Made by a program: the position numbers and the translations under genes. Below the pieces are notes generated by a model. It was not told the DNA's origin and did no database searches. It worked only from the letters and a program-made list of their open reading frames with translations. DNA of 64,000 nt from Microbotryum violaceum (taxonomy: Eukaryota). Shown here piece after piece: positions 8,550 through 50,100 of the stretch; within the stretch, counting starts at the first letter, position 1; each line of letters opens with the position of its first letter. The DNA is taken from NCBI GenBank assembly GCA_001244265.2, contig CDLV01000004.1:1798001-1862000 (forward strand), given 5' to 3'.

Positions 8550-11500
8550 TGTAGAAATCAAATAGCGATGTGCTGAGCGAGTTGGCGGCAGTGGCAAGCC
8601 AATGAGTTCGTAATCAAGTAGAGATTGCAATAAAGGAGTTCTTCACACACCTGAACAAGTTGGCGGCAGTGGCAAGCCAATGAGTTTGTAATCAAGTGGA
8701 GAAGAAGAAGGAAAGACGTGATTGGCCCGCGCGGCTAATACAAATAGAGACGCGCGCTAGGCGGATTTAAGGCAAGAGCAATCTACCTCAACACCCCCCC
8801 TTGCTCTTGGCCTGAAATGTGGCGCAGACCGATGGCGTCACAATGACGCTGGAAGACTACTTGTGGCAGCGGCTTGGTGCAAATGTCGGCAACCATATTG
8901 TGGGTTGGGATGTAGGTGACCAAGATCTCGCCGTTCCGAACGTGCTCCCAAACGAAGTGCTCCAACATGCGCAAATGTTTGGTGCGAGCGTCGAAAGCCG
9001 GATTCTGGGTGAGCGCTATAGCTCCCTGGTTATCCCCGAGAAGACGTAAAGGGGACGACATGTCAAGACCGAGTTTGGTGAGGAGCGAGCGAAGGAAGAC
9101 AGCCTCCTTGGCTGCATGCGAGAGGCCCAGGTACTCCGCTTCCGTGGATGAACAAGCTACGCGAGGTTGGAGACAAGATGACCATGAGATGGCCCCACCT
9201 GCCAGTTTGAACAAGTAACCCATAGTGGACCCCAACGTCTGTATGTCCGATCCCCAGTCCGAGTCAGAGTACCCCTTGTACCCCAGCAGAGGCTCACCGG
9301 TGCGCATGTAGTGAATGCCAAGATCAAGTGATCCTTTGATGTAACGAAGGACGCGCTTGGCCGCCTCGAGGTGAGTGTTGCCCGCCTTGCCAACGAAACG
9401 TGACGGATATCCGACGGAGTGGGCTAGATCAGGGCGAGTGGCAACGACAGTGTACATGAGTGAGCCGATCATGGAACGGTAGATGGCATTGACGGCGGAG
9501 TCTGGATCGGGTTCCGGCAAAAGCTGTAGGTTGGCTTCCATGGGTGACTTGCAGGGGTTGCAGTCGGACATGTTGAAGCAAGCCAAGATGTCAAGGAGGT
9601 ATTGACGCTGGAGAAGGGAGATCCCGCCATCGTCGTGTCGTACGACCTGAACCCCAAGTACCCATTTGGCCGGGCCAAGGCATTTGACTCCGTAGAGGGT
9701 GTCGAGTTGGTCAAGGACTCGATCAATTTCCCCGAGATCCGGCCCAAAGAAGAGTAGATCGTTGACGTAGAGTGCGATGTAGTGATCACCCCCAGCGTCC
9801 TCATGACGATAGATGCATTTGTCGCAGGCGAGGTGACGATAGCCGAGACTCGCAAGCGTGGTGATGATCGTGTTGTTCCACACTCGACCTGCCTGCTTGA
9901 GACCGTAGATCAATCAATGAAGGCGGAGGCATTTGCCTTTGTAGCCTTCGATGCCAGTTGGAACCCGCATGTAGATCTCCTCCTCCAGCACACCGTGAAG
10001 ATAGGCCTTAACAACGTCGGCCTGAATGATGTGGTGGCCCTTCGAGGCTGAGTGCGCGATGAGCGTGCGAATGGAGGTGTACTTGGCCGTGGGTGAGAAG
10101 GTCTTGTTGAAGCTGTTCGGGCCTTGTGCGCAGCCCTGTACAACAATGCGGTTCTTCAGTGAAACCATCTTCCCGGCTTTGTCGCGTTTGGTTCGAAAGA
10201 CGTGACGACTTGGTAGATCATAGCTCCTTTGGGCACGGAAGATAGTTTGACAACGCTGAACACCTTGAGATCGTCTTTCATCGAGCGGAATCCATCAATG
10301 GCTCCCGCTTTCCATCCCACGGCGTGAGGATGGTGCATGGCATCATTCCACGTGGTGGGATCACTGCTTAGGAGCGAGAACGGGTCCTCTGGTTCCGAGA
10401 GTGGTCGATCCGCTGTTGAGGTGTCGATGCCCGCCGCTTTGAGATCAGCAACAAGTTCGGTTACCTCCTTGCCTAGAGAGAATGCGAAGGCAGAAGGGGT
10501 CAAGCGCGAAGATGCGAGGGCGCCGTAACAAGCTGGGGGGTTGCGCGGGCGCAAACCCACGGGTGGCTGCCACACGGGCCCCAGTGTGTCGAAACGTAAA
10601 GCAGCCGGAAGCTCTGCTTGGTCGGGGGGTGCCTGATCGGCATGCTGGTCAGGGAGTACAATGACTATGTTGTCGTCGTTGCCTGTGACGGGCACATGAG
10701 CTGCTGGGATGCCCTCCTGCCTGGCTGGGAACTCGTCCTTGAAGAATGTGACACTGTGCAATTTGAAGACTTGTCTGGTAGTGGGGTCAAACAGTCGGTA
10801 TTCCTTGGATTCGAGATCGTAGCTGATGAATAAGAGTGGAATACCCCACGGATCGAGTTTGCTGCGCGCTTTGGTGGTAGCTGCCTTCCATGCTCTGCAG
10901 CCAAATATGCAGAGATGGCCGGCCAACGGCTTCAATCTGTGCCAATGCGTGTGTGGTGTGACACCTGAATTTGCCAAGTGTGGTGAGCAATTCTTGACGT
11001 AGACATATGTTGCCAATGCCTTGGCCCACAAAGTGTGGGGTAGACCCGACTGGTGGAGCATTGATCGGACACCCTCGGTGATCAAGCGATTTGTGCGTTC
11101 GGCAACCTTGTTTTGCTGAGGGGTATCAGGAATCGAAAGCTGACGAGTGATGCCTTGTTCTCCCAGGAAGCTCGAGAACTCGTTCAACAAGAATTCACCA
11201 CCATTGTTGGAGCGGACTGCCAGGAGTTTTCTTGACGAGGAGTGCTCGACCTCTGCAAGCCACAACTTGAAGGCCGCAAAGGTATCGGACTTTGCAACAG
11301 CGGAATTGCCCAGAGATATCGGGTGTAATCATCGACAATGACGAGGGCGTATTTCGCGCCGCCTAACGACACGGCGCCGTTGAACGCAAGAAGGTCCATG
11401 TGGACTTGATCAAGAGGTTGGGCCGAACAATTCGATGTGACAGTGGGGAAAGGGTGATGTGTGATCTTCCCAGCCTGGCATGTATCACATTTCAAGTCTT

Positions 11501-13109
11501 TGTTTGATGCTACCTCCATGTTGACTCCCAGCACAGCCTCAGTTGAGATCAGCTGTTGTAGAGCGCATGGGTGAAGGTGAGCAAAACGTCCGTGCATGAT
11601 GGAGACAGGAACGGCCGCAAATGCGCATGGGGATGCACCCGTTTGCTTAATGAGAGTAGTGACGTTGACGAGGGAAGCATGCATGTGGTACAAGCCGTTC
11701 ATGATCTCCCCGGTGTGGCAAATCAACCCGCCAACTGAGACCGTTGCTTTGCCTTGGGCAAGGCTGATGTCGTAGCCTGCAGCGTCGGCGCAACTGACGG
11801 AGAAGAGGCTGACCGGCGCGCTGGGGACGAACAACGCGTGGTGGAGTTGGCCGATGCTGCCATCGAAGGAGCGAACGACAGCGGAACCGACACCTTCGAT
11901 CGAATTGACCGCCTCACCCGTGATGCCCTCGAGCGGAGCAGGCTTACACTTGCGGAAGTTGGTGAAACAAGCGCAATCATTGACGATGTGATGCGTCGCG
12001 CCGCTGTCGAGGATGAGGGAAGGTTTGGCCAATGTGGACATCGCTGCGGTGAGGTATCCGCGGACCGGGCCGTCTAGCAACGTCGAGATGTCGGGAGCAG
12101 CGGCGAGTGATGCGGACGGCGCGGAGGAGGCCTTGGACTTCTTGTCCTTGACGGGGCATTTTCGATTCCAGTGAGGACCTCCACAGTGTTGGCACGGAGC
12201 TGACGGAGTCGATGAAGATCTGTCCGTTGCGGTCAAGCTAGCTACCATTGCCACGGGCTTGTGTGCCGGTGTGGATTCAGCTTGACTCTGAAGCGTTTGA
12301 AGCGCTTCGATCGGATCGGGGAGCTTGTCGAGGTCTTGACGGAGCGTTTGAGTATAGTACTCCTTGTAGAGGTCCTTGCCAAAGTGGATCAAGCGTATCG
12401 AGATGACCTGTTCAAAGGTAAGGCTGTATCCCAAAAGAGTGTTGAACAGCTCAATGGTGTTGGCTTGGTACTTCTTGAACGCGTTGACACCGGAGGGAGG
12501 TGGACCCGCATTGAGCAGGGCTTGGAGCTTGATGAAGATGTTGGTGACTGTGCCTGCTGCGACCGCTTTCTTGATCATCTTCAAGACGTCGGTGGAAGTG
12601 TGATCGAATCCGTCTTTGATCTGCTTCTTGATGTTGAGGGAGACCGAGCGCCTCAAGAGCGCAATCACTTGGAAGTTGGCGTGCTCCAGGTCGGTGCGCG
12701 CGTTGGGTTTCTGAATGGGCGTCGCAAGCGTGCAGTTCCAATAGTTGCCCCCAAGAGCTCCACGGACGTCGTTGATCCATTGCGACCAGCCTCCCGCGTT
12801 GCGCAGGTGGCATGACGGGTCGATATTGTGGGGTTTGACATAGACAATAGAGGTTGTTCCCCCTGGTACCACAGTGTCCGTATCACCGGGCATGATGACT
12901 TGATGACTCGAGTTGGCTGGGCCGCTACGTTGGGCTCGTAACCTGTAGAAATTGAACAGCGATGTGCTGAACAAGTTGGCGGCAGTGGCAAGCCAATGAG
13001 TTTGTAATCAAGTGGAGAAGAAGAAGGAAAGATGCGATTGGCCCGCGCGGCTAATACAAATAGAGACGCGCGCTAGGCGGATTTAAGGCAAGAGTAATCT
13101 ACCTCAACA
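8550..13109 (-). mobile_element. Full-length degenerate Ty1/Copia element (family A). 5' LTR 12944-13109 (166 bp), 3' LTR 8550-8793 (244 bp)
   Basis: TSD CAACA (8545-8549 and 13110-13114). PBS GGTTACGAGCCC at 12932-12943; G-rich PPT at 8794-8806. Order gag-PR(LILDSGATHH)-IN-RT(YGLKQAGR)-RH(GYSDSDW), with frameshifts. Confidence 0.96.
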
Positions 13110-14073
13110 CAACATTGGTGTAGGAGTTGTCAAACAAATACCTCAAGCGGTGAAAACCCAGCCTTCTGGGGAAAACTGCAAGAAATTGATCTAAATGGAG
13201 GAAAGTTCGAACTTTTTGGTGATACACAGGGATGGTGGGCGGGATGACAATTGGGAGCTTTGCAACCCAAGCTTCTGGATGTCAGTTGGCTGCAACTGAG
13301 GATGGAGCAAGTCCACTGATCATCTCAGCATACCTTTGCGACAAAGGCAAGACACTGTATAAAGACAGTTGTGGCGCGGTTGGTGCAAAGGACGGCAAAG
13401 GGTCTGCTGAGAGATATGCGATTTAGCTCGTTGCCCAACAAGGACTCGGAGCAAAATGCCCCCACAAAGAATTTGCAAGGATCCAAGTGCAAAGTACACC
13501 CTGCAACAAGCTTGGGTGTATCGAAGCACTTCCCCCGAGCTATTCTAAGCGAGCCACATCGAGGGTTTCATATCGAGCTGCTAGCAGCTGTGAATGTCCG
13601 GCAAGATGGAACTCTCAATCAGCGACCTCAGATCAGCAAAATGGCCAAACGCGCGTAAGCGCGCGAAACCTCGTAAAGCAGTCGTTAAGCGGCCTAAAGC
13701 TGCTCTTAAGCGCCCTCAACCACTCGTTAAGCCGCACACGTGTTAAGTGTACCCTAGATAAGGGACACCTACGGCGCGCATACGGCGCGCTTTGTTTGCA
13801 TACGCAAAGCGGTCCGTAAGCGCTCTTATGCGCGTATGCATCCTTATGCGCATCTTATGCACCGTTAAGCGCTGTTAAGCGCGCGTAATCTCGGGCAAAT
13901 CCTTAAGCGGGTTCGCGCGCATCGCCATTTTGCTGATGCTTGTCAGCTGGGAGGTAGTCTTGGGAGTGAGGAACGCACCTGTCGCTACAGGTGGTGAACG
14001 CAGCCATAGAAGCTGGTAAGGAAACATTGACAATGCAGTGAAGGCCCAAAAGGGAACGTGCGTTGCGAGTACC

Positions 14074-14297
14074 TGTAATACACTCCGTAGGAGTGTACAC
14101 CAGAGAGCAACGACGAGAGTATCACAGGACCAAAGTATGTGGAATTAACACTGGACACTCGTGTTAGTTGCTACAATGACTATGACTTCTGATCCACCAT
14201 AGGCTCACCTGGACACTCGTGTTAGTCGCTGAGGGGAGACTAAGATTGTCCAGGCGCGCGCTCCCTTCTCATAAGGCCCAGGCGCACGGGCCTTACA
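14074..14297 (-). mobile_element. Solo LTR, family E (subfamily E2); left inversion breakpoint
   Basis: TGTAAGGCCC...TATTACA on the minus strand. Its flanks (CCAAG and GGTAC on the element strand) do not match each other but match those of 41735-41957. Confidence 0.93.
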
Positions 14298-15825
14298 CTT
14301 GGCTGTGCGGCGCTTGTGGGTGTGGAGCCGCTTTCGGCGATCACTCAAGTCAAGAAGTACAAGATCCCCAACAGCCCAAGAGGGCTCATCCCGACACCTC
14401 TTGTTGGACTGTGCTGCCTGGCAAACCTTGGAAATGGCAAGCTGGTCCCAGGCATCTTCGCAGGCTTGGAATTGAAGGGCAAGCAACTCCTCAACCGACG
14501 GCAAGTTGTCATTGCCGTCGACACGGGCAAGTGGGGTGAGGGAGGGCATGTAGCCAAGCACAAGCTCAAAGGGGGTTTTCCCGGTAGCAACATTGAGAGA
14601 CAAGTTGATGGCATACTCACAGACAGCAAGGCACTCCGCCCAGTTGGATTGCTCCTTGTTGACGAGCGCTCAAAGAATCTGGAAGGCAGTCTTGTTCGTT
14701 TTCTCACTGCAACCGTCCGTCTCCGGGTGAAACACCAAAGAGAGCTGGCGCTTGTGTAGGGCAGTCCAGAACTTGCTTGTAAACAGCTTGTCCCGGTCCG
14801 AGACGATGCTTTGAGGGAGGCCCAAGAGGCGGTGCCATCCTTCATGGAAGCGCGCAGCAACCTCTGCTGCAGTGTCAGCTTCGCGTGCAGGGAGCAAACG
14901 GATGTACCCCAACAGGCGGTCAGTGATTGTTAACACACGGTCAAAGCCTTTGTTGGTGGGCAGCGGTCCGACAAAATTGATGGCAATGTCGGCCATGGGT
15001 TGTGCTGGGACAGGTAGCGAGTGGAGTTTGCCAGCAATGCGAGTGGTACGAGCCTTTGTCCGTTGACAAGAATCACATTGTTGGACGTAGTGCTTGACGT
15101 CCCGGGACATGTTTAGCCAGAAGTATGCCTACTGAACGGTCCGGTACGTTTTCATATCACCTAGGTGCCCCTGCGCATCATGAGCATCATGAAGGATGGA
15201 CTCACGGAGCGGGGCTAGTGATGGAATGATAAGCCGGCCCTGTAAATACAGCAATGCATCAACAATCTTGAAGTCCGATGTGACCGAGCCAATGTTAGTC
15301 ATGGCTTGCTGGCAGAATGGGTCGGTCTCGTACGCGTCAAGGATCTGCTGCTTGACAGCATCCAAAAGCTTGACATGGGAGACAGAGGCCATTAGGGTGG
15401 ACAGTGGATCAGTGAAGGAGTATCGACTCATCGACTCATTGCATTGGCTACAATGTTGTCCTTGCCAGGCAGGTATCGAAGGTCGCAATCAAATTTGGCC
15501 AGGGTGTCCAGCCAACGGGCTTGTCGGCAAGAGAGAACGGTGCGCTGGGTCTGGAAGTGCTCGATTGTGGAGTGATCAGTGAGGATGTGGAAGTGACCGC
15601 CAAGCAAGTTGATGCGCCATTCCTTGAGTGCTTTGACAATGGCAAGGAGTTCCTGCTTGTGAGTGGGGTAGTTGCGTTCAGTGGGTATGTATTGCCTGGA
15701 CCAGTACGCAATGGAGCAAGCCATCTTCCACTCCTGACCCTGGAGGAGGACACCACCAATTCCGTGATTGCTTGCATCAGTCATCACCCAGAACGGAGCG
15801 GTGTCGGCGGAGTGGTTGGGCGGCT

Positions 15826-24811
<8,986 letters not shown>

Positions 24812-26911
24812 TGGCTGAAGGCAGTCGAGTGAGGTGACAATGGCCTTGATGGCTTTGAAGTGGCGGATCTCGTTGGGTGTCCAGATTGTGGCAATAGATG
24901 AGAGTCCTTGGCGTGTCGAGGGAGTCAGCGCGGCGGTGTGCTCAGCAAGGCCAGGGATGAACTTGCAAAGATACTGCACCAGCCCAAGGAAACCCCTGAG
25001 TTCCTTGACCATCTTGGGTAGTGCCCAGTCTTCAATGCGCTGGATCTTCTTGGGATCAGCATGCACCCCGGCGCGGTTGATGATGTGGCCAAGGAACGAG
25101 CATTCCGCGGTGGCAAGGTTGGTTTTGGTTGGAGAGCAGTAGAGTTTGGCACAGCGCAGCGCTTCCATGACTTGCCAAACATGGGCCTTGTGCTCCTCCA
25201 GTGTGTCCGCAAAGATGGTGATGTTGTCGAGGTAGACGAAGCAGATGGTGCCAAGCAAGCCTTGGAGTGCCTTGTTGACACGTTGTTGGTGGGTGGCAGG
25301 GGCATTGCAGAGACCCATGGGCACGACGGTCCACTCGTACAAACCCCAAGGTGTGGACACAGCCATCTTAGGGATGTCCTCTTCCGCCATCTTGGTCTGA
25401 AAGAAGGAGTTGGTCATGTCGATTTTGGCCCAGAATTGCGCATTGGAGCACATCAAGAGAATGTCATCAGGCAAGGGCAGAGGCGTGAGGTCTTTGACGG
25501 TGTGCTTGTTGAGCTCGTGGTAGTCGTTCACCCAGCGCGGGGCGATCGTGGGATCCACGTCGCAGCCCTTCTTTGGGATGATGAACGAGGGTGACGAGTA
25601 TGACAACCGAGAGGGGCGGAGGCGACCAGCCGCAAGATGTTCCTGTAGCAGTAAGTGCCATGCCTCGCAATACTTCTTTGGGAGGGGGTATCCCCGAAGG
25701 TTGACAACAGTGGCCGGATCGTCAAGCTCGATGCGGTGTCGCACCGGGGATTGGTACGAGTGTACAGGCGGGATATCCGCAGGAAAACGGTTGGCAAAGT
25801 CCGCTTGGAGGCGATGGTCAAGCGCGGCAAGGCGGAGCTGCTTCTCGTCGTCAGAAACCGGAGCAATTGCGGCAACCCGCGCGGCAGCGCACGGCTGGGA
25901 TGACAGCGCCAGCAGGTTGATAGAGTGTATAGGGTTGGCTTTGGAGGTGAGGTGTGGCTGAGGGAAAAGGCCAAGCTCCAACTTGTGCCAATAGATGAAG
26001 TTGCCTCCCAGGATAATCTCAAGGTCCTTCCCAAGGGGCGCTACCTTGGCATACGTTGGTCCTGCGGTCCAGAGCCCATTGGCCAGCTCGAGCGGGACTC
26101 GAACAAAATGCGTACAGGTGAAGACAGTGGGCCCTTGGTTTTGCATTGCAAGGGTGTACTTTGAGTGCGGTTCCAAGGTGCGCCTTCCCAAACCCAACCA
26201 CTGAACAAGCTCCTCACTGACAAATGTTTGTGGCAATCCCGAATCGACTAGGGCGGAGGCAAGGAGAGGGCCATGAGCGCCAAGTAGGGAGACGGGTAAG
26301 GGGGGAAAGGGATGCGGTGCGTAGGTGCTGTGGATTTAGGGCGGGTCATTGGGTTTGTACGCGGGGCTGTGGGCGCTGTGGAGTTGAGGTGGGTCATTGG
26401 GCTTGTACGCGGGGCTGGGGCTAGGGGCAGCGGACGTGGACATGGTGCGCGGAGATTGTGTGAGGGCGGCTGGTGAGGCGTGCGAAGGTGGTGCGTGTGT
26501 GGGCATGCTGGGCTGTGCTGGGGCTGGGGGTGTGCGTGCTATGGTTGTGGGATCGGCTTGCCTCGACCGATCTGGGCTAGTCGATAGGTTTGATGGTTCG
26601 ACTACGGCCGGGCCTGATGAATGTAGGCCGTATCGTTGGGGTACCAATGAACTCAATGTTGTCAAAAAAAAAGTGAAAGGCACGAGATCACTCTCGAGCC
26701 TCACTGGCGACCTAAGCTGACAGGTGCAAGTTATATGGATTGCAACTAGCTTCTGGTGTCAGCCCAATCATCTACGAGAGTGCTGAGATATGGAACACCA
26801 GTACTCACCTAGCTTCTGGTGTCAGCACGATGAGGAGGGAACTGAAGAAGCTAGGTGCGCGCAATCTCTATTTCTAGTGCCTGTGGCCCGTAGTAAGGCG
26901 CGCGCCTTACA

Positions 26912-27710
26912 CCAGAACCCGACCCCAATTCAGACCGAGACCGACACCGATACAGAAGCCGATACCGATACCGATACAAACACAGACACAGACACCAATA
27001 CCGATACAGACACAGAACCCGAACCCGAGACCGATAGAGAACCAGAACTCGAATTCGACGACGCACGGGGCAGACCAGCTCCGCCGCCGCGAAGGACAAG
27101 ACGAACCAGAACCCAGAACTGAGATCTCGAACAAGAACCAAGACAGGAATTCTTCGAACTCAAACACGAACCAGAACCCCGCGACCCGGCCCCACAGTCG
27201 CTCCCGCCATCACGCCTGCCCAGCCCAGCTCTGCGAAACGGCCTCAAACACCGTTACCGCCCCCCTGCAAGACGGCTTCAACACCGCACCCGCCCCAGAT
27301 ACCGATTGGAACAAGACAAGAACCGAACGAGATCAGACCCGAATTGATCCGAACCGAACAAGAACAGACTCCTGAGCCAAATCAAACAAGAAAAGGACGC
27401 AACAGTTACGACCGAACCCGGAGGACTCTCAAGCGTTTCAGAGGCAGACCACAACAAACGATCCCTTGCATCAGAAGCTGGAGGAGGGAATTGATTCAAG
27501 GAGGGGTGAGTGTAAGGCGCCGCTCCGCTTACGCCTCACGACGACCTCAAGCCGACCTCTGCGGCCTCACGCTTGCCCTCGCGCGTGGCGCCGCCGCGTT
27601 TCTTGACCTTAGTCCTTTTAGTAGTCTTTCTTTGCCTGCGAATACACCGTTTGATCCTTTCTGTTTGGACTCGGAACCAGTGAGGCTCGAGAGCAATCTA
27701 GTGCCTTTCA
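26912..27710 (+). mobile_element. TRIM-like non-autonomous LTR element (family B), 3' half: low-complexity internal region, PPT, 3' LTR 27511-27710
   Basis: PPT AAGGAGGGGTGAG precedes TGTAAGG. The 3' flank CTTCG matches the 5' flank of the LTR at 42698-42898 (CGAAG on +). Internal GAYACC/GAACCC hexamer-like repeats with no retroelement domain. Confidence 0.85.
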
Positions 27711-28812: not shown

Positions 28813-28982
28813 CTCAAGCTCACGACATCCGAAGCGGTTGTTGTGGAAGCTCTGCAACAAATACGGGATCAAGAAATGGCTGCATGCAACATAGCTATGA
28901 ATTCGAGTAAGTAACTTCATGAACTGTGCTCTTGGTGTGGGATTGTTCAGGAGCTAATGGAAAACTACCAAGCAGCAATACC

Positions 28983-29207
28983 TGTAAGGCCCGTGCACCT
29001 GGGCCTTAGATGGAGGGGGGGCGCGTGCCTGGGCACTCTTAGTCTCTCCTCAGTGACTAACATAGAGTGTCCAGGTGAGCCCAAGTGGATCAGGAGGCAT
29101 TGTTGTATCAGCAACTAATGTAGAGTGTGCAGTGTCAATCCTACATACTTTGGTCCTGTGATCTTATTGTTGTTGCTCCGGTGTGCACTCCTACGGGGTA
29201 TATTACA
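28983..29207 (+). mobile_element. Solo LTR, family E (older, diverged copy)
   Basis: TGTAAGGCCC...TATTACA. TSD ATACC (28978-28982 and 29208-29212). Confidence 0.93.
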
Positions 29208-29462: not shown

Positions 29463-29669
<207 letters not shown>

Positions 29670-32871: not shown

Positions 32872-32943
32872 CAGCTGGACCAGGAGTCGAACCTGGGTCG
32901 CTTCCATTAATCGGAAAAGCTTTGACCACTAGGCTATCCGGCC
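32872..32943 (-). tRNA. tRNA-like gene or pseudogene (72 nt) with non-canonical anticodon loop GATTAAT (apparent anticodon TTA)
   Basis: Folds as GGCCGGA-TA-GCCT-AGTGGTCA-AAGC-T-TTTCC-GATTAAT-GGAAG-CGAC-CCAGG-TTCGACT-CCTGG-TCCAGCT-G. A and B boxes present; perfect T arm; one mismatch each in the acceptor and D stems; lacks U33. Confidence 0.7.
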
Positions 32944-33000
32944 CCTGATATCAGTGCAAGGTCTACTACCACCTTCAACAGGAGGTTCCTCTTACTGGTT

Positions 33001-33119
33001 CATCTTTCATCTTTCATCTTTCATCTTTCATCTTTCATCTTTCATCTTTCATCTTTCATCTTTCATCTTTCATCTTTCATCTTTCATCTTTCATCTTTCA
33101 TCTTTCATCTTTCATCTTT
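33001..33119 (+). repeat. Perfect heptanucleotide microsatellite (CATCTTT)17
   Basis: Direct count: 119 nt = 17 x 7. Confidence 0.98.
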
Positions 33120-38100: not shown

Positions 38101-39211
38101 TGCTCTCGGTCGCTGAACGCTACCCTGCCGTCGTCGATCCTGCCAAACTTTCGGTCTCCAATCTTCTTTCTCTTTCCCCCTCCAACCGGGTCTGCATGAC
38201 TCGCGGGCGTTCTCGGAGCAGGATAAGCGTTTGGCGAAGCATTTCAGTTTCGAACGCACCATCGCCGACATCTATGCTCGAGCTCAATACCCCGCAGCTC
38301 CAACGGTGCCCTGGACCCCTGAGAAGCATCCCCAAGGCGACGGCTCGGAGCTGTCCAACCTTTGGCAATGGAAGCGCGATCAAGTCCAGGCGTGGATCCA
38401 GGTCGCAGGCGATCGCTTCATCCCGCCGCTTCCGCCTCCTGTTCCCGTCCTCGCACGTCGACCACCCGTCATTCGTGTCGTTGGAGCACCTGGAGCCCGG
38501 CCCGGCGGTCCCCTCGAGCACATCTTGCCCAGAGCGACTCCGGTCGGCATGCCTGATCAAAGACTTCCCCTCCCCTCCGCCCCCTTGCTTGCTAATCAGT
38601 GGAGAATGTTGAGCTTGGACAGACCCTACACCATTGCGCGACTTCGACGCGTCATCAACCATCGACGTTTCGACGACACACAACGCCCTGGATCACTCGC
38701 CACACCCAAAGAAAGGCGACTCTTCTGGGGTGGTTCCACACCGGGCCCGCCACGGCCCGCGAGCGCGAGGTGCACTTCAAGCTGGCGTACCACTTCACGC
38801 CAACGCGGAAGCGCCAGTTTGTGCAGCGGCATGGCGACTCGGCCTGCTGCCTTGTGCAGGCATGCAGCCTGGCAGGGGTGGAGGATGACTTTACTCACTT
38901 TTGGCATGATTGCCCTGACTCTTCTCAATTTTGGCAAGCAGCTAGGTCCATTATCTGCGACGCGCTGGGGTCGTGTCGATCCTCGACCTCGACTACACGG
39001 CACTTCAGATCGAGCACGGCCTCCCTCGACTGCGCGCTCGCCTTCCGACGTCGAAAAAGCGTCCAATCCGCGCCTTCATTGCGCTGGCGCTCAACACTCT
39101 CAGCAACCGACGCTGGGATCTCCATCGCCACGCCAGAGCGATGTCGAGCATGGACAAGGAGATGGCGGGACTGAAGGAGAGGTTGGAGCTCAGATTGGCG
39201 CGATGAAGTAG
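35170..39211 (+). pseudogene. LINE ORF2 (APE endonuclease-reverse transcriptase-Zn knuckle), frameshifted
   Basis: Domains are spread over ORFs 35170-36159, 36156-38612, 38231-39211, 38599-39174 and 38973-39206. Confidence 0.9.
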
Positions 39212-41587
39212 ATGTCCCTCCCTCCCTATCCAAGCAAAAACCAAACCCCCAAAAAATCACAAGTCCCTTTTCCCTCCTTCTCAATCTCCAAAATGTCTCC
39301 CAAACACGCCAGAATACTGAACCTGTTTTCTCTCGCTCTTTTTACCATTCCTCCTCATAGGCTTCCGTACTCCCCAGGAGCCTCGGGTTCTTTGCGCCGG
39401 CGGGCATTGTCGCCCTTGGTTCGAGCTTCTGCCACATCACGATGACACACAGCGAAAACGGATCCCCTTGGCCCTCTCCTGGACTATACCGTGAGTTTTC
39501 CACTCCTCTCAAGGGCCGGGTCTGTCTTCTCTTTCGGTCGAGCGACCCCGTGATCTCCTGTTCAAGGCCGGCACAAACTGCCTGCGTGGCTCGCCTCTCC
39601 TTGCTTTGCTGCTCGCTCGGAGTCGCGGCCCCGCGGCGGGTGACTCGGGTACCGAACCGCCATACACATCCACACTCGAGCGAGGTCCCACCCAATGACA
39701 TCACCGTCGTGGGCCTCATGCTCCTTCTTTCCCCAGTATCTGCGGTGATTGGGAACCACCTGCACGTACAAGGGGACTCGAGTGTGCGTTCCGAGATTGG
39801 GAGTACGCCGCAGGGAAGCGAGGCCCCTGCGGAAGGTATACCCCGCCCTTGTCTCCAGCCGCGCGCCGGTGTTGACGGCCACCCGCCCGCGCTGCACCCG
39901 ACCGAGGCGTGTCCAATGGACTGTCACATGCTCCGTGACTTTCCCCGGAAATCTCTGGATTGTGTGTTTTTGTGCGAAGTAGGCCTGTTTCGCAGTTGCA
40001 GTCATTGGAATGGGGGTGATCTGGGGTCGTGCGGTCGCGAGGGGGGCCGACTTTGGTAACCGAAAAGAGGTTTGGAATCCGCGGTGGAGATCCAGCGCAG
40101 ACGGGTACAAGGGGTATGTGATTGCTGCGGTCGCAGGGGGTTACATTCCCCCTTTGGACCACGTGAATCATTTGGATTGAGCGGGATGTTTGTGCCATCG
40201 GAGGCCTTGTTCGACGCGTCTCAAAGAATTAAGGGGCTTCAAGGAGTATGGCGGTCTCAGGGGGGGGCTGAAGTCAAAAGATCGAAGAAGGTTCAACTGT
40301 ACGACTATAATCGGATTCGCCTGTACAACACATGTACCATCACCAACGACTCATCCATCTTTTCCCGATTCCTTGTGTATAATCTTCAACCTTCCTTTCA
40401 TTCGTCTCTGGGAGGGAGCAACCGTGGGTGGGGGGGACTTGAACTCGGATGTATCGGGTTGGTCTGTTCTGCTAGTTACAACGCATCAAGCGGCGGTTGT
40501 GGTCATCATCGTGCATGCTGGGTAGCATCTCCTTTAGTTCCGTAGGGGGTTTTCTCGTCTTGCAAATTAGCGATGAGTTTCATACAAAAAAAAAAAGCCG
40601 AGTGACTTTTCATCCAAAGCGGATGCAACTGCTCAAGTAGTGGAAGCTTGCACCTCATCAAAATCGGTGAGTAGGTCTGGTAGATAGGAACAATAAATGC
40701 CATGTCGTGGGCCAAGGTTGATTCACGACTTCAGATGCATGTGCGAGGGCCACCCTGGAAGATCATGTCCCACTCGGGGCCTCAGCTTGTATGCGCCGAG
40801 CGTCGAGTGACTTTTGCACACCAAAGCCGCTGTTCCTGTCCGTGTCAGGTTACCATCCTCTCTTCAATGTCGCCCATTCCACGATTATTCCCCCTATATC
40901 GTTGTCTGTTTGATCGGCAAGTTTTAGGTGTACATCCGACGTGGCGAGCGATGCATTTCGGAAAGCGATCATGCATGTTGCCTGTTCTCCGACTGAGACT
41001 TTCCTGCTCAAAACTTCCCCCATGCTATGAAGCCCTCGCTATGTCCAAAATTTGGCAATCGCTTATTGAAAAGTATTTTAAGTATCTCCTACCCCCAATT
41101 AAGTCCAAAACAGACCTTTCAGATGCAAGTCAAAGCATTGAATGCCGGACCGATTCGGCGGCGCGCATTACTGGTCAGCACTAGTACTTGTTGGTCAAGT
41201 CTATAATGTAGAATCATCTCGCATCTCGCATGAACGGGCCAATGTGCAGTCATGGGGAGCAAGTAACGGAACTGGCTTATTAGTAGTTCCACAAGCTCCG
41301 AGGATGAACCCCCTCTGCTTGTGTGCTCACATTGGCAGACGCCGACGGCAATCTCGCCTGGGTCACGTGAAGGTAATTTACTCCTGTTTGCCAAATATGG
41401 CTGCACTGGTGACTGTACTATTACAGGCTATTGTTTGCGCCATCACCATATCACTTATTGGGGGAACCACAGGTGGTCGGTAGATCTATGGAAGCAAGCA
41501 ATGCACTACATATGGTCTTTTCGACTTTTGCTGTAAGGATTTGACGCGCCAATTCAGGCTCGCGCGCACGGACCCTCTCTCCCCCGT

Positions 41588-41734
41588 GGATGCTATAGCT
41601 GTGCTTCCCACACACGCGGGCTCACGGGTGGTACTCGCAACGCACATTCCCTTTTGGGCCTTCACTGTGTTGTCGACGTTTCCCCCAGAGGATGCTATAG
41701 CTGTGCTTCCCACACGCGAGCTCACGGGCGGTAC
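41588..41734 (+). repeat. ~102-bp tandem repeat; the second unit is cut by an LTR and continues, inverted, at ~14020-14073
   Basis: GGATGCTATAGCTGTGCTTCCCACAC occurs twice. GGTACTCGCAACGCAC..TTCCCTTTTGGGCCTTCACTG is found at ~41630-41670 and as reverse complement at ~14035-14073. Confidence 0.88.
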
Positions 41735-42550
<816 letters not shown>

Positions 42551-42898
42551 TCTGGGTTCTGCCTGGTTCGGGTTCGGGTTCGATTTTTTTTCCTTCGCAG
42601 CCGCTGAGCGGCGTCGCAGGGGCGGCTGGGAGGGTCAAAGTTTAACGTCGGGTTGGGACGGAGTCGTACATCCGAGTTGTTGGTTTCAAAAAAAAAGTGA
42701 AAGGCACGAGATTGCTCTTGAGCCTCACTGGTTCCGAGTCCAAACTGAAAGGATCAAACGGTATAATTTGCAGGCGAAGAAAGACTACTAAAAGGACTAA
42801 GGTCAAGAGACGCGGCGCTGCCGCGCGCGAGGGCAAGCGTGAGGCCGCAGAGGTCGGCTCGAGGTCGTCCTGAGGCGTAGGCGGAGCGGCGCCTTACA
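42551..42898 (-). mobile_element. TRIM-like family B element, 5' half: 5' LTR 42698-42898, oligo-T tract, start of internal region
   Basis: LTR homologous to 27511-27710 and 7169-7369. GAACCC repeats continue those at 26912 onward. Confidence 0.87.
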
Positions 42899-43274
42899 CG
42901 AAGCCCCTCGTACTCCGTTTCGGTGATCGGTTTCAAAGGATCCTGTGGTACCCGGGATCCCGTCGGAGGCATTTCCGACATAGCGAGCCGTACTCAGGTT
43001 GTCTCGGGATTCCGCGGGAGACATTTCCGACATAGCGGGCCCCGTCAGGAGTCATTCCGGTTGTAGCGGGGTCTGTGTGGAAGCACCGCGTGCAGCCGTG
43101 CTCCAAGAATGATAGACAGGATCAAACAGTCGTAGTTCAAGTCTAGAACCTCGAGGCAGTTAGCTGCAATACTAAACATAGGGGACTGGTGCACTCACCT
43201 AGAACCTTGAGGCAGTCAGCTGGCAAAAGCCAAGAAAGGTTCTAGGCGCGCGCAAGCTATCCAACTAAGCCCCA
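42899..43274 (-). mobile_element. 5' LTR (43074-43274) and leader/gag start of another LTR element (family I); continues at 27711 on the + strand
   Basis: TG...CA ends. Internal direct repeat with intron signals. The short ORF PITETEYEGLR joins LRASIQESKG at 27711 across the TRIM B TSD. It truncates the LINE ORF at 43275. No second LTR seen. Confidence 0.65.
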
Positions 43275-44930
43275 AAATTCCATCACCTTCTTCCGGCTCC
43301 CGGGCAAAAGGCCTCGGGCCTTGCACTGTGGTACTTGGGATTCCATCGGAAGCAGCGGTTGTAGCGGAGTTGTTTCGGTTGAAGCAGGATTGAGTTCCGA
43401 AGTCATCACCTCACCATTGGGCCCTCGAAAAAGCGTCGGGTTTACCGAGAAGTGTATTCCGTGGCCTGCTGGGAAGAAGAGTGCGTGCGTCGCCCATTGC
43501 TCGAGGTTATGGCTCTTGGAGAGTTCCGGGGGATTGAGCGTGGTCACCAACACCCAGGCTTCGAAGTATCGGACCCAACGAGCAGGAAGAAGTTTTGTCG
43601 TCTTTCTCACTGCATGGTCCCACTTTGGGGGAGGATGGCAAAAGTATGCCCACCAGATCCAGATCCAAGGGCGAGGTTGGGGGGCCGGTCTGGACAAGGT
43701 GAAAGGTGTTGGTTCGTTCGGTACCTGGAGGCGGATGCGGATGTCGAAGGTGGCGTGTGAAGCAGCCGTCCGGGGCCCGGAGCTGGAAGACCCACTTCGC
43801 GTGATCGATCGCTAGACGCCGAGGCCAATCAATCAAGCCGAAGCCGCCGTGATCGAGAGGGGTGCAGAGGCGCGACCGGGAGACCTTCGGGTGTCGCTGA
43901 GTGCCATCCGAAGCTCGACCGTGAATGGCGAGCATGGCGGCCTCCTCAATCTCCTTGACAACACTCTTGGGGGCGGGGAGGAATCGGCTGTAGTACAGAA
44001 TCTTTGTGCAGCAGTAGATGTTGATGATCGAACGCTTGGCTGCATATGGGAGATCGTACATCGGAATTGAGCGTATCCAAGCGACGGTCGAGGCCTTGAT
44101 ATCTTCCCAGCCCGCATCCTCGGCGATCTCCACCCCGACCTGAATACCAAGGTAGCAAAACTGCGAATCGCTGGCCGAGACGCCAGGTCCCGAGCTCTGG
44201 GGCGATCGGCCGATCCTGAAAAGCTCCAAGGAGGTAGAGGAAAGATTTGGCGTTGTTGAGCTTGCTGGCACTTGCCCGTTCGTAAAGCTCGATCGCCCGA
44301 TTGAGGTGGTCGAGGTCCGAGAGGTTGTGGAGTGCGCAGCAAGCGTCGTCGGCAAAGAGGAGTTCTCGAATGTTTTGGAGGCCCGCAATATCGATGCCCT
44401 TGGCTCTCAATCGGATCTGACAGGCAAAACCTTCGAACACCAGAACGAAGAGAAACGGAGCCAGAGGATCACCTTGCCGAACGCCCGACAGGATGTCGAA
44501 AGCGGCAGAGAGCCAACCGTTGAGGAAGATCGAAGCGCATTGGTTGGTGTAGGTCGCTCGGTACCATTGGCGGGCTTTGGGGCCGAGGCCAACGGCGCAG
44601 AGGAACGCCTCTTGAGCCTTTGTCATCTCCTCCAACGGATACGCTTCCTCGAGCTTGAGTGAGTCCGCGGGGAGAGGCGAGTTGAAGCGAGGCCGTCGAT
44701 GATCGCCTTCAGGGCCGCGTCATCGATGGGGCGGTCCTCATAGACCCGCTCGAAGTAGTCGCTGGCCGCTCCAAGCATCGAAGCAGGGTCGGAATGAACA
44801 ACATCGTTGACCGTGAGCGAAGGGATCAGGTCGGATGCTCGCACTTTGCGCAGGCGGATGAAGATGGAAGAGGGACCCGCCAGAGATGGGTCGAGGCGGG
44901 ACCGCAGGGCCGCGCCGTACCGCGAGAGGA
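43275..44930 (-). mobile_element. Fragment of a second L1/Tx1-like LINE ORF2 (RT region), frameshifted and internally deleted
   Basis: GVRQGDPLAP, LLFADD, YLGI and LCTPLDHGGFGLID motifs. Boundaries approximate. Confidence 0.88.
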
Positions 44931-47160: not shown

Positions 47161-50100
47161 TGTTGCAACAAGGACTAAGAGGTACTCCACGACTCAGCTC
47201 CGAGATACACGAGTGAGATGATGAGAATAGCGTGGCTTTGCAGTAACTAACCTAAGAGGTACTCCACAACACAGCTCCAAGATACACGAGTGAGATGATG
47301 AGAATAGCGTGGAGAAGGAACCCAGAAGGAAAAAAGACGCAAAGACAAAGATAGGCGCGCGCGCAGAATAAAGTCTTAACCAAGACTAATAGCAATGAGT
47401 TAGGCTCTCAGACCCCACTTCTAACACTCCCACCGGTCAAAGAGACTAACAAGACCATTCCAAGTAGAGCACGAAGTTGATCAAAGCGTTGAAATCCCAA
47501 AGGCTTCGTCATAATATCCGCGGCATTGACGTGGGTAGGGCAGTATTCAAGTTCGACCTCGCCAGAAGCAACCTGTTCTCGAACGAACAAATGAGCAATG
47601 TCGAAGTGCTTGGTTCGCATGTGATTGACCGGATCCTTGGCACTCTGGATGCATGCGGCGTTGTCCTCTTGAATGATAGTAGGCTGTGCTTGTGGAATGC
47701 CAACATCACCAGCCAAACGACGGAGCCAGATTGCTTCACAAGTGGCTGAGGATGCAGAGAGGGTTTCGTCTTCGGTAGTGGATGTAGCGATCATAGATTG
47801 TTGCTTTGACTGCCAGGAGATAACGCCGCCAGCGAGCATTGACGCATAGGCTCCCACCGATCTGCGAGATTCCGGGTCATCCGCAAACGAGGCATCGGAG
47901 TAGACCATCAATCGAGTTGTGGAACTGTTTCGATAAAGAATTCCCAAATCGATGGTGCTGTTGAGGTAGCGAAATATACGCTTGACCGCAGCCCAATCGT
48001 TGACAGTTGGACAGGAGTTCTTTTGAGCAACGGCACGAACAGCAATCGCGATATTGGGTCAACATCGAGTGGACGCGTACTGCAGGGAACCCACAGCCGA
48101 TTGGTACAATGACACATCGGCAAACGGAGTAGCATTGATTCGAAGCGAGGGGCAATCGTCCATGGGCGTGATTGCACGGCGCTTGGATGGAGAAGCGAAA
48201 TCGAACTTCTCGAGCATAGTGCGGACATACTTGCTTTGGTGAACGAGGATGTAATCTTTGGTGCGATGAATTTCGAAGCCCAGGAAGTAGGAGACGGGTC
48301 CGAGACGCTTGAGTGGAAGGCCTCATGAAGCTATCCGAGCTCGGAGTCCAAGAAGGACTGATTGTTGGACGCAATGAGACCGTTGTCAACATAGAGAGTG
48401 ATGATAGCAAACAAAGTGCCCGAATGTTTGATGTAGAGGCAAGCATCGGCAGTTGCCCTCATGTAGCCTCGAGACACCATGAGATCGTTGACGGCTCGAT
48501 ACCATTCACAGGGTGCCTGTTTGGTGCCATACATGGAACCCACAAGCTTGAGGCACTTGCCAGGGGCTTGAGGACGATTCCATCCTTTTGGGTATTGAAC
48601 ATAGACATCCTCGGTCATCTTGCCGTTGAGAAAGGCGCAGTCAAAATCGAACTGTTCGAGATACAGGCCCTGAGCAGCAGCCAGAGCAATCAAGAACAAA
48701 TGACAGGAGCGTAGGTGTCATGGTAGTCAATGCCTGGGCGTTGAGCAAATCCTTGAGCAACGAGACGAGCTTTGAAACGAATGATTTTGCCGTTTGCATC
48801 GCGCTTGATACTGTAGACCCAGATTGTGCCGAGTACCCAAATTCCTTCGTGCCACTTAACTTCCTGAAAGACTCCATGATGATCGAATTGTAGAAGTTCT
48901 GAGACCATTGCCGCACTCCAATGGTTGCGATAGGGTGACTTCATGGCTTCCTCGAATGTCTTGGGTATCTTGATGTCTTCTTTGGCAAACACGGCAGCAC
49001 AGTAGGCATCGTAGGAAAGCTTGTCGTGGAACTGTAATACACCCCGTTGGAGTGTACACCTGAGCGACGACGACAAGGATCACAGGACCAAAGTATGTAG
49101 AATTGACACTGGACACTCGTATCAGTCGCTGGTATGACAATGCCTTCTTATCCACCTTGTGCTCACCTGGACACTCGTATCAGTCGCTGGAGAGAGACTA
49201 AGAGTGCCTAGGCGCGCGTCCCCTCTTCCTAAGGCCCAGGCGCACGGGCCTTACAGGAACATGGGTGGAGTATCCAAGACATTGACCATGATAGCCAAAA
49301 TGATGGGAAGTATATTTTCCGGAGGTTGGTCAACGACAAGAACCAGCAGGAAGGATGTTGGAAGAATCAACATTCTCGAATTGGCCAGGATTTGGACCAG
49401 TGCGAACGATGGCGTAACCTTCACAAGGAGCGAGAGTGGCTTCCGCCTCACCGTTGAGTGGTTCTTGAGGAACGACTGCAAGATACCCCCCTGTTGACCA
49501 ACTCCAATTGGAACCACCGGAGGAGGCTGTGGATCCGGCAAAGTTGGATCCACAACAGGTGAAGTTGGTGTAGACGGCAACACATCTGGCGGAGGATGAG
49601 GAGGATGAGGAGGTTGAGAATGATGAACGGGATCAGAAGCGTCCGCACGATCTTGAGACGAAGTGACGACGGAAGGAGTCTCAAGGAATGTGACGTGACG
49701 CGAAACGTAGACCTGTTTCGACGATTGGACCCAGACAGGGTAGTTGTATTCACCGGAGTACCGATGAAAACTCCCTGAATGGAGCGAGGTGCAAGCTTGG
49801 AGCGACGCTCCTTGCGAACGTGGACAAACGCCGTAGATCCAAATGGCTGAAGATGAGCAAGACTAGGCTTCTTGCCGAGAAGAACTTTGATTGCCGTTTT
49901 TCCTTGAATACGAGGATGTGGTCGACGATTGAGAACAAATGTCGCGACAGCCAGAGCATCTGACCAGAATTGCATGGGAAGACCGGAGTCGAGGAGCATT
50001 GATCGAACGAGACCCATGAGAGATCCATTGAGTCGCTCTACTTGACCATTTTGCTCCGGAGTATAGGGGGCCGTGAATTCCACGATGATGCCCTGCTTTT

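Follow-up and report, generated by a model that had tools for sequence, protein, structure and literature searches.

How could an LTR that carries a short intron keep it from one replication cycle to the next, and why would that intron end in a copy of the exon before it? Both questions are raised by a 64,000-nt TE-rich region of a Microbotryum anther-smut species (hereafter, the window), where a first-pass annotation had described LTRs with a repeat ending in AG (repeat 1), a directly following GT that opens a spacer, and a second copy of the repeat also ending in AG (repeat 2). Spacer and repeat 2 together form the candidate intron; junctions are written with a slash.

Repeat-bounded candidate introns in the window

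Both strands of the window were scanned for the pattern X-AG/GT..X-AG with an intron of 40-130 nt. Nine of the ten previously noted loci were recovered, and the pattern was confirmed by eye in the remaining diverged copy (E_28982, intron 29075-29132). No further locus was found on either strand, the single extra hit (43150-43205) being an overlapping sub-hit inside the family I locus. There were no hits in 20 shuffles of the sequence, and a chance origin of the AG/GT repeat pattern is excluded. All ten annotated intron coordinates were correct, with the pattern on the strand given. The repeats, annotated as 18-61 nt long, measured 18 nt in C, 22-24 nt in E, 24 nt in I, 52 nt in A and 61 nt in F, and they did stop exactly at the AG in five of five families: the next base is G past repeat 1 and T, T, A, C or T past repeat 2. 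About 12 distinct short-range direct-repeat loci occur in the window, and the AG/GT type makes up five families; its introns lie in sense orientation wherever the coding strand is known (E, C, A and F). This LTR architecture is likely real and apparently undescribed so far, as the literature searched held no description of an R region duplicated in the LTR with the acceptor copy inside an intron.

Gypsy-type and copia LTRs

The gypsy-type LTRs of the window are as follows (left arm, the U3 segment that pairs with the end of repeat 1).

18028..18250 (+), E 5' LTR of a truncated chromovirus: left arm 18070-18081, repeat 1 18095-18116, intron 18117-18174, repeat 2 18153-18174, U5 18175-18250
22115..22337 (+), E 3' LTR of the same element, preceded by a purine-rich tract: left arm 22157-22168, repeat 1 22182-22203, intron 22204-22261, repeat 2 22240-22261
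28983..29207 (+), E solo or diverged LTR, third subfamily: left arm 29027-29039, intron 29075-29132; an extra base and CTAAC/CTAAT common to both repeats
41735..41957 (+), E LTR, second subfamily: left arm 41777-41788, perfectly complementary; intron 41824-41880; CTAAC in both repeats
14074..14297 (-), E LTR, second subfamily: repeat 1 14209-14230, intron 14151-14208, repeat 2 14151-14172
49033..49255 (-), E LTR, first subfamily: intron 49109-49166; repeats 24/24 identical
26674..26911 (-), gypsy C 5' LTR: left arm 26846-26856, repeat 1 26809-26826, intron 26746-26808, repeat 2 26746-26763; then C-T9-GA
42375..42550 (+), second gypsy C LTR, intron-less: exactly the 63 nt missing, single repeat
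42944..43325 (-), family I LTR: left arm 43236-43247, repeat 1 43199-43222, intron 43143-43198, repeat 2 43143-43166
42694..42899 (-), C2 LTR, negative-control family; also at 7165-7370 (-) and 27510-27711 (+)

The E element spans 18028-22337 with the TSD CTTGC, and its empty-site joint (18022/22338) has five shared bases; the C 5' LTR lies upstream of an RT ORF (24758-26236, -). E introns are 57-58 nt long with the donor GTGAGC, a CAG end and CTGAT, CTAAC or CTAAT within the repeat; the donor is GTGAGT in both C (63 nt) and I (56 nt). Neither an intron nor an AG-terminated repeat was found in the C2 LTRs, which are related to C. The E, C and I LTRs can be aligned collinearly, with a mean column identity of about 54%, in the order TGYAAGGC start, GCGCGC, CT-rich tract, repeat 1, GTGAG, repeat 2 and CCTGT box, which indicates that they are homologous gypsy LTRs.

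The copia LTRs are listed below.

8550..8794 (-), copia A 3' LTR: repeat 1 8651-8702, intron 8573-8650 (spacer and repeat 2 8573-8624), U5 8550-8572
12944..13110 (-), copia A 5' LTR, intron-less: one repeat abutting U5, then a PBS-like GGTTACGAGCCCAAC
47161..47426 (-), copia F 3' LTR: repeat 1 47252-47312, intron 47175-47251, U5 47161-47174
51986..52174 (-), copia F 5' LTR, intron-less
15826..16104 (+), copia D 5' LTR, intron-less; its partner at 24533-24811 (99.3% identity) is also intron-less
1172..1335 (+), 5' LTR of the related copia element A', intron-less: one repeat abutting U5

The limits of copia A were taken from the empty-site joints 8543/13109 and 8550/13116. Its intron is 78 nt long (donor GTGTGT), and that of F is 77 nt, a 16-nt spacer plus the 61-nt repeat 2 (donor GTTAGT). 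A variant of D in the contigs of run X1 reads CACAATAG/GTTAGTTGAAATACATT; an 80-nt repeat beginning at 15980 comes next. A CT-rich TCTCC/A boundary ahead of the repeat is common to the A, F and D LTRs, and the D and F spacers both open with GTTAGTT; A, F and, in other genomic copies, D are copia LTRs of a common layout. The intron-less copia A and F 5' LTRs and the intron-less C copy (42375-42550) were absent from the first-pass annotation. It had further taken the five families as unrelated, with no other LTR similarity; the collinearity of E, C and I and the shared boundary of A, F and D instead point to about two lineages, one gypsy and one copia, and speak against five separate origins.

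Splice signals, relatives and the putative start site

The spacers of the five window families and the D variant open with GTNNGY (GTGAGC, GTGAGT, GTGAGT, GTGTGT, GTTAGT and GTTAGT), and all six introns end in AG. The gypsy repeats hold CTGAT, CTAAC or CTGAC 12-17 nt before the AG, and candidate LTR introns range from 56 to 97 nt. The single host intron in the window reads CAG/GTGAGT...CTGAT...CAG. Among the 15 contig joints listed (of 37), none fell at an intron; the contigs of four runs cover all 30 bins and therefore look like DNA. If the leader is spliced, repeat 1/U5 would equal the genomic repeat 2/U5 in sequence, so that short junction reads would be non-discriminating. Against splicing count the very short first exon (18-24 nt) and the poor donors of three metagenomic elements (GTATAG, GTAATT and GTAGAT).

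The metagenomic set comprised 80 loci, 502,421 nt in all, that encode E polymerase relatives, and hits with a score of at least 20 outside tandem arrays were considered. Eight were on the sense strand of seven loci (L001, L002, L005, L006, L007, L008 and, twice, L013) and none on the antisense strand. Six cases lie 58-78 nt upstream of a conserved C-T(7-10)-GA site, a spacing that agrees with the 75 nt in E and C, or, for L013, occur in each of its two identical LTRs. Among the 80 loci, six related chromoviruses have the same structure in their LTRs. Relative to the first base of repeat 1, a TATA box is found at -30 (L007), -31 (L006) and -32 (L013), and a weaker TTTATT at -31 in L001; L002 and L008 have no TATA near -30, which counts against a start there. 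In all window families the repeat begins directly after the CT-rich tract. By the CT-rich tract and the TATA boxes in three of six metagenomic relatives, the repeat has a 5' edge that behaves as a transcription start would.

A proposed cycle of intron renewal

We propose that a short spliceosomal intron is located between the transcription start and U5 of the LTR, and that its last 18-80 nt (repeat 2) copy the first exon (repeat 1). Transcription from the 5' LTR would begin at the first base of repeat 1, and the cap-proximal intron would be spliced, giving the leader repeat 1/U5. The same intron would be left unspliced in the 3' LTR; in gypsy-type elements, the transcribed end of U3 would pair with the end of repeat 1 and the donor GT, enclosing the donor and repeat 1 in a hairpin. 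Minus-strand strong-stop DNA, the complement of repeat 1/U5, would then anneal to the free repeat 2 near the 3' end of the RNA, and copying of the spacer, repeat 1 and U3 would give both new LTRs the form U3-repeat 1-intron-repeat 2-U5. An intron-less LTR would arise if the transfer went to repeat 1 or if the 3' copy were spliced. Because repeat 2 would be overwritten by repeat 1 in each generation, the two would stay near-identical while all else diverges, and the repeat would end at the splice junction and start at the presumed start site. Copia families would follow the same repeat logic without the masking stem. We consider this self-renewing intron plausible, though unproven, and lean modestly towards it.

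The two repeats evolve in concert

Under the proposed cycle, the rewriting of repeat 2 from repeat 1 predicts homogenisation within elements and divergence between families. Within a copy, repeats 1 and 2 are 80-100% identical (eight window copies), and the same repeats compared between E, C and I are only 50-65% identical. Two sites and one indel separate the three E subfamilies, and each state is common to both repeats. In six metagenomic elements the repeats are 100% identical over 23-42 nt and differ between elements. The two repeats thus evolve in concert.

These data bear on a more conventional reading, in which the intron is real and replication is retrovirus-like. Use of unspliced RNA as the template is the established, standard way in which retroviruses keep introns; R would here comprise repeat 1, spacer and repeat 2, and the spliced RNA would serve only as messenger. 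The duplication would then have another role: it might offer the U3 arm a second pairing partner, act as a decoy or recursive AG/GT site, or provide tandem poly(A) sites. However, an R copied as a block would leave the repeats to be inherited independently and to diverge like the spacer, contrary to the identities within and between these homologous families; the perfect identity in the metagenomic elements extends far beyond a stem of 8-13 bp, and it is left unexplained why the predicted start site and the splice junction bound the repeat. We regard this reading as unlikely.

A U3 segment complementary to the donor region

In gypsy-type LTRs, the left arm (0-19 nt upstream of repeat 1, and assigned to U3 because of the TATA spacing) pairs with the last bases of repeat 1 and the GT after them in a contiguous stem of 8-13 bp that ends exactly at intron +2. 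Stems as good as the observed ones arose in 0-8 of 2000 shuffles for E (three subfamilies), C, I, L007 and L013, and in 26-65 of 2000 for L001, L002 and L006. RNA folding gave -20 to -35 kcal/mol (z -3.1 to -8.4) in 7/7 gypsy-type segments, and the arms vary in sequence between families with complementarity kept (covariation). Complementarity, stability and covariation are thus observed for the unspliced-copy step of the proposed cycle. Being encoded in U3, the stem would mask the donor in the 3' LTR only, a concrete reason for an unspliced 3' copy. Counting against this role, L008 and the copia families had no significant stem in the shuffle and fold tests, and repeat 2 is an alternative partner for the left arm, in a pairing shorter by 2 bp. 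An arm able to pair with either repeat would also fit retrovirus-like replication, where a donor-masking stem could simply set how much of the RNA is spliced and how much is not.

The stem also weighs on the improbable reading that nothing is spliced, and that the same initiator in both repeats starts transcription from each, transfer to either repeat giving the two LTR forms. An RNA starting at repeat 2 would indeed be identical in sequence to the spliced leader, and the L006 and L008 spacers are AT-rich. Yet the Microbotryum spacers are not AT-rich, the TATA box lies at -30 from repeat 1 and not from repeat 2, and neither the stem built around AG/GT nor the GTNNGY openings, AG ends and branch-like motifs would be explained. 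Most improbable of all is a static relic without a present role in replication, whether an intron or short fragment inserted with a long target duplication or a chance AG/GT from ordinary tandem duplication in LTRs, where short tandem repeats are frequent. Direct repeats flanking introns are reported in PMC11782384 as marks left by insertion or break repair. A tandem duplication, however, would run beyond the AG into the GT, which is never so here, and a relic would neither keep its repeats alike as the LTRs drift apart to about 54% nor recur in sense at the same LTR position in distant relatives. Transposases are not known to make target duplications of 18-80 nt.

Intron-less LTRs

Single-repeat, intron-less LTRs comprise the C copy, the 5' LTRs of A, A' and F, both D LTRs and L012, and they are the failure product or by-product that the proposed cycle predicts. 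Their distribution in copia elements counts against it: the intron is missing in 4/4 copia 5' LTRs and present in 2/3 copia 3' LTRs. No 5' splicing is possible in those copies, and a leader intron is not needed there. In copia A, the 3' and 5' LTRs differ at 7/75 positions in repeat 2 and U5 and at 3/144 in U3 and repeat 1; in copia F, the repeat and U5 of the 5' LTR are identical (75/75) to repeat 2 and U5 of the 3' LTR. Standard reverse transcription should yield identical LTRs, with which the A and F pairs are at odds. The intron-less D, with its near-identical LTRs and very high contig depth, is young and high-copy, so the intron is not essential. The first-pass proposal that the repeat acts as R and the intron is rebuilt each cycle therefore stands in part: the homogenised repeats, start-like 5' edge, intron-less LTRs and U3 stem speak for it, and the copia 5' LTRs and the young D against.

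Relation to known systems

As in retroviruses and LTR retrotransposons, the first template switch of minus-strand strong-stop DNA would be guided by a redundancy between the RNA ends; in those elements short R regions suffice (about 15 nt in MMTV). Unlike the classic case, the acceptor R would lie inside an intron, R would occur twice per LTR and the donor copy would be made by splicing. HTLV-1, BLV and foamy viruses have their major splice donor in R, and likewise an LTR-internal 5' splice site close to the cap, but they use an acceptor in the interior of the genome and package unspliced RNA, whereas here donor, branch point and acceptor would all lie within the LTR. In HIV-1-type leaders, hairpins occlude the splice donor or poly(A) signal in a context-dependent manner; there too a sequence occurs at both ends of the RNA, and in one of its copies a stem conceals a processing signal. 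Here, the masking arm comes from U3 and is absent from the 5' copy by construction, and its function is predicted from sequence. The AG of repeat 1 abutting GT has the juxtaposed acceptor/donor form of recursive splice sites, which are AG/GT zero-length exons, but would be explained by its identity with the intron end.

In retroviral vectors of the split-intron type (Ismail et al. 2000, summarised in PMC3182074), a 3'-LTR splice signal is copied over to the 5' LTR, and reverse transcription likewise assembles a working intron in the progeny provirus. As that summary presents them, such vectors are engineered and work once, with an LTR donor and an acceptor located downstream of the packaging signal; the proposed cycle would be natural, recurrent and based on a duplicated R. 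In E, C, C2 and 31/80 metagenomic loci, C-T(7-10)-GA directly follows the 5' LTR in place of a tRNA-type site. By this feature, not by phylogeny, they resemble Tcn1-clade chromoviruses, described in the portion of PMC2864245 drawn on here as having T-rich post-LTR sequence and no recognisable primer-binding site; that portion mentions neither an LTR intron nor a duplicated R. With a T-run in place of a tRNA site, reverse transcription in the clade may follow a non-canonical pathway, a point against the proposed cycle. If the cycle is true, a long RNA that otherwise lacks introns would likely benefit through intron-dependent expression or export, or by evading silencing.

Retroelements of the window

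The window has 53.7% G+C and no N, and it is a nest of retroelements adjoining one host gene.

Annotated features
4699-7083, host gene with a NudC/CS domain; protein 96% identical to Microbotryum lychnidis-dioicae MVLG_06612, which assigns the window to a Microbotryum species
8550-13110, minus strand, copia element A (Pfam)
15826-24811, plus strand, copia element D (Pfam)
18028-22337, plus strand, truncated chromovirus E, nested in D (Pfam)
33126-39211, LINE-like element with endonuclease and RVT_1 ORFs
47161-52174, minus strand, copia element F (Pfam)

Fragments of the gypsy families C and G are also present, and a perfect (TTCATCT)17 microsatellite (32999-33119) adjoins the LINE-like element. 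In E, RVT_1 and RT_RNaseH (19075-20457) are followed by Integrase_H2C2, rve and Chromo (20509-22080), the order RT, RNase H, integrase, chromodomain of Ty3/gypsy chromoviruses. Its LTRs (TGTAAGG...TTACA) are 97.8% identical and flanked on both sides by a 5-bp target duplication, CTTGC, and a polypurine tract, GGAGGGGAG...GGTGGTGGAGAG, precedes the 3' LTR. In C, only RVT_1 was seen, and the gypsy LTR family I is without an internal part in the window. The three copia elements carry Retrotran_gag_2, gag_pre-integrs, rve and RVT_2 in Ty1/copia order, between LTR pairs that are 97.1-99.3% identical.

Contigs of four runs (X1, X13, X18 and X19), compared with 7001-26930, covered 30 of 30 bins and look like DNA. 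Contigs lacking E (CTTGC at 18023-18027 and 22338-22342) occurred in all four runs, and contigs lacking D (15821-24813) or A in some of them, so these sites are polymorphic or multi-copy. Differences from the window were mostly A>G and T>C, with A/T in the window where other copies have G/C; this bias fits the RIP-like TCG/CpG hypermutation reported for Microbotryum (PMC5381629). Two E copies (14074-14297 and 41735-41957) are inverted and 97% identical, and share the same flank in other genomes (41581-41733; loose ends at 14073), thus being parts of a larger unit that is itself repeated. LTR I contains 52-nt tandem units (CGCTATGTCGGAAATG...; 42953-43041) in its 3' part, and because a further similar 52-nt unit lies just upstream of its start (43327-43390), the exact 5' limit of this LTR is uncertain.

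A putative intron between duplicated repeats

The first-pass annotation had described, in five LTR families, a putative intron bracketed by a direct repeat, and all of its intron coordinates proved correct. On the sense strand each LTR reads U3, repeat 1 ending in AG, a spacer starting GTNNGY, repeat 2 ending in AG, and U5. Scanning both strands for this pattern recovered nine of the ten loci, and the only further hit was an overlapping one within the I locus. The tenth locus belongs to a diverged E copy and was verified by visual inspection. Shuffling the window 20 times gave no match. Roughly 12 distinct loci in the window have short-range direct repeats, and five families are of the AG/GT type. 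A 28-nt repeat at 30320-30403 (spacing 56) serves as a negative example, as it ends CA/GTGCCG and its surroundings are AT-rich and not an LTR.

The GTNNGY donor is found in the five families and in a variant of D, and a CTRAY branch motif lies 12-17 nt before the AG in E, C and I, the branch motifs of the copia families being weaker. The GT...AG ends, donor and branch motif are those expected of a spliceosomal intron, with one host intron as the comparison, and the predicted first exons are short (18-24 nt). None of the 15 run joints compared, out of 37, fell at an intron, a result without bearing on splicing.

The same annotation took the families to be unrelated, which does not hold, as E, C and I can be aligned over their whole length and share one order of blocks. 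The LTRs of A, D and F share a CT-rich ...TCTCC/A boundary before the repeat. The D LTRs within the window are intron-less; run X1 contigs carry a D variant with the intron layout (...CACAATAG/GTTAGTTGAAATACATT, then an 80-nt repeat), which makes D a sixth family, and its spacer starts like that of F.

Two other origins of the structure were considered and rejected. An introner-like or TSD-flanked insertion is at odds with repeats of 18-80 nt that stay homogenised across families diverged to ~54%. A tandem duplication across AGGT fails because the base after repeat 2 differs from G in all five window families. Judged from the sequence, this LTR architecture is a real and conserved feature, apparently undescribed: no account of an intron that lies inside an LTR and has its 3' end duplicated was found in open-access papers and preprints, and a prior description elsewhere is possible. 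The nearest analogue is an engineered split-intron retroviral vector (PMC3182074).

Concerted evolution of the repeats

Within a copy, repeats 1 and 2 are 80-100% identical, and homologous repeats of E, C and I are only 50-65% identical to one another. Three E subfamilies differ by G/A, by T/C and by a one-base insertion, and whichever state a copy has, its two repeats share it. Where only one repeat has changed, the change is mostly a CpG or TCG transition, which is what post-insertion decay in Microbotryum would be expected to leave (PMC5381629). Likeness within copies together with divergence between families indicates that one repeat is recopied from the other again and again. An R region inherited as one block would instead let the two repeats diverge separately, and would not give this combination.

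Forms with and without the intron

The intron was present in every gypsy-type 5' LTR seen, namely those of E, C and I and of L002, L006, L007, L008 and L013, metagenome loci encoding relatives of the E polymerase. Another C LTR (42375-42550) is missing precisely the 63 nt of the intron, which is likewise absent from the related or unrelated gypsy LTRs of C2 (three copies) and G. In copia A and F, U5 directly follows a single repeat in the 5' LTR, and the complete structure is found in the 3' LTR; empty-site contigs with joints 8543/13109 and 8550/13116 confirm where A begins and ends, its additional 3' segment included. A related copia 5' LTR at 1172-1335 is intron-less. In total, the intron occurs in none of four copia 5' LTRs and two of three 3' LTRs (Fisher p ~0.14 by our own arithmetic, from two informative elements, which are too few).

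We rejected this asymmetry as a systematic product of reverse transcription, since no standard step yields it. Nor does it argue against transmission, because an intron-less 5' LTR with a full 3' LTR would give the same RNA as a spliced full element. Between the LTRs of A, repeat 2 and U5 differ at 7 of 75 positions, and U3 and repeat 1 at 3 of 144; within U5 (8550-8572 vs 12944-12966), 3 of 23 positions differ, none at TCG, which suggests another template history for the 3' end. As intron-less D elements are abundant and young, the intron is dispensable for at least the D family. Among copia relatives in viral_contigs, none of seven pattern matches was confirmed.

Relatives in metagenomes

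An alignment of the E polymerase and 12 homologues was used to scan metagenome contigs, giving 80 loci (502,421 nt). Applied to these loci, the pattern scan detected perfect 20-42 nt repeats around introns of 50-65 nt, all on the sense strand, in L001, L002, L005, L006, L007, L008 and both identical LTRs of L013. Antisense matches of comparable score were tandem arrays only, and matches in L024, L029, L067, L068, L075 and L080 were dismissed as tandem arrays or for low scores. In six cases, a conserved C-T(7-10)-GA site, located past the 5' LTR, comes 58-78 nt downstream of the structure, in agreement with the 75-nt U5 of E and C; L005 (26-85), at a contig edge ~120 nt before the polymerase match and with no LTR placement, is left out of this count. 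In the best 30 of the 80 loci, this type of 5' LTR end was present in 19, and 6 of these 19 have the structure. Loci with it are among those closest to E in the list (50-60% identity), and more distant loci are without it. Some donors in these relatives are poor. L012 has the same AG-ended repeat but lacks the intron. Five more distant loci with no LTR intron (L020, L024, L026, L028 and L063) have GTGAGT or GTGAGC in U5, ~35-45 nt before the T-run and followed by a short hairpin; this may be a splice donor for a leader that is arranged differently.

A predicted hairpin covering the donor

Gypsy-type LTRs carry, immediately before repeat 1, a segment complementary to the final 6-11 nt of that repeat together with the GT. 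This predicted masking hairpin is new relative to the first-pass annotation.

Left and right arms of the predicted hairpin
E: GCCTGGGCACTC / GAGTGTCCAGGT
C: ACCTAGCTTCT / AGAAGCTAGGT
I: GCCTAGAACCTT / AAGGTTCTAGGT
L007, L013: ACCTTCGTTGC / GCAACGAAGGT
L001: GCCTGGTG / CACCAGGT

Stems were anchored so that the right arm ended at intron position +2, and the upstream sequence was shuffled 2000 times. The observed stem length was reached by 0-8 of 2000 shuffles for E (three subfamilies), C, I, L007 and L013, and by 26-65 of 2000 for L001, L002 and L006. For L008, copia A and copia F, shuffles often reached it. Single-sequence RNA folds gave -20 to -35 kcal/mol, with z of -3.1 to -8.4 in all seven gypsy-type segments and ~-0.3 in copia A and F. 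A consensus fold of ten hairpin segments in a MAFFT alignment yielded no structure because the arms are misaligned between families there, and the stem claims rest on the donor-anchored stems with their shuffles and on the single-sequence folds. In E, C and I, a GCGCGC motif forms the outer part of the left arm. The motif is also seen in copia U3 (A, ~8745-8755 and ~8715-8725; F, ~47355-47365; D, ~15880-15895), in no stem.

Predicted start site and T-run

Relative to the first base of repeat 1, a TATA box starts at -31 in L006, at -30 in L007 and at -32 in L013, and L001 has TTTATT at -31; among the six metagenomic elements examined, L002 and L008 have no TATA near -30. In the Microbotryum families, the repeat starts right after a CT-rich tract, with only that tract there. 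These positions fit a repeat extending from the predicted start site as far as the donor. Judged by the TATA spacing, the left arm would lie upstream of the start site, and the stem would form only where U3 is transcribed, in the 3' LTR.

After the gypsy-type 5' LTRs, a T-run (CTGTTTTTTTCACACC in E, CTTTTTTTTTGA in C and C2) stands in place of a tRNA-type primer-binding site, and nothing complementary to the opening bases of repeat 1 was apparent by eye. C-T(7-10)-GA or -AA occurs in the window at 18251-18270, 26655-26673 (minus strand) and 42675-42693 (minus strand), and at 32 sites in 31 loci among L001-L079. In Tcn1-like chromoviruses, a conserved T-rich sequence replaces the primer-binding site, the priming mechanism being unclear according to PMC2864245. 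As a speculation, the T-run could pair with the poly(A) tail. Tf1-like self-priming was rejected, E showing only a 6-nt AGCGAC/GTCGCT match inside U5 and no complement after the LTR by eye. A likeness between the spacer tail and repeat start of copia A and a U5 with primer-binding site was dropped, as nothing comparable was seen by eye in F. In E, C, I, L001, L002, L006-L008 and L013, U5 has a conserved box, approximately YTTGRTCCTGTC, ~8-25 nt past repeat 2, which could act in poly(A) site choice, packaging or priming.

Discussion

Retroelements replicate through RNA and should lose any spliced intron, and many fungi express intron-less RNAs poorly or treat them as foreign. The most economical reading of the sequences is the model of the first-pass annotation, in which the repeat acts as the R region, with a masking arm added. 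The 5' copy, at the capped end of the genomic RNA, would be spliced for expression, since the U3 arm is absent there, and the resulting leader would match genomic repeat 2/U5 in sequence. The 3' copy would be protected by the U3 arm, an anti-donor hairpin that would bury the donor and repeat 1, leaving repeat 2 free as the acceptor for strong-stop DNA, so that the intron would be rebuilt every generation. The poly(A) tail of the RNA itself, adjoining repeat 2, may prime reverse transcription via the T-run, and the first jump would then be intramolecular. This model would account for both repeat edges, the homogenisation, the sense-strand position and the intron-less derivatives, and as a candidate replication model it is well motivated by the sequence evidence. 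The joint reading (5' splicing, a U3 anti-donor hairpin, a duplicated R in an intron and possibly poly(A)-tail priming) is put forward tentatively, its probability falling, in our judgement, just short of even. Within that tentative reading, the intron paradox of retroelements would have been solved by one clade of fungal chromoviruses and, through convergence, by some copia elements.

Element age and family structure will be misjudged wherever an LTR consensus library lumps forms with the intron and forms lacking it. If the reading is true, the elements would carry a compact module of a duplicated R, a masking stem and a 50-100 nt intron, which would bear on the rules of strand transfer, on how splice sites are masked according to context and on designing retroviral vectors that keep an intron. 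A natural LTR able to restore its intron despite being spliced would be a new answer to the conflict between retroelements and intron dependence, and would account for the continued activity of such elements in intron-dependent hosts.
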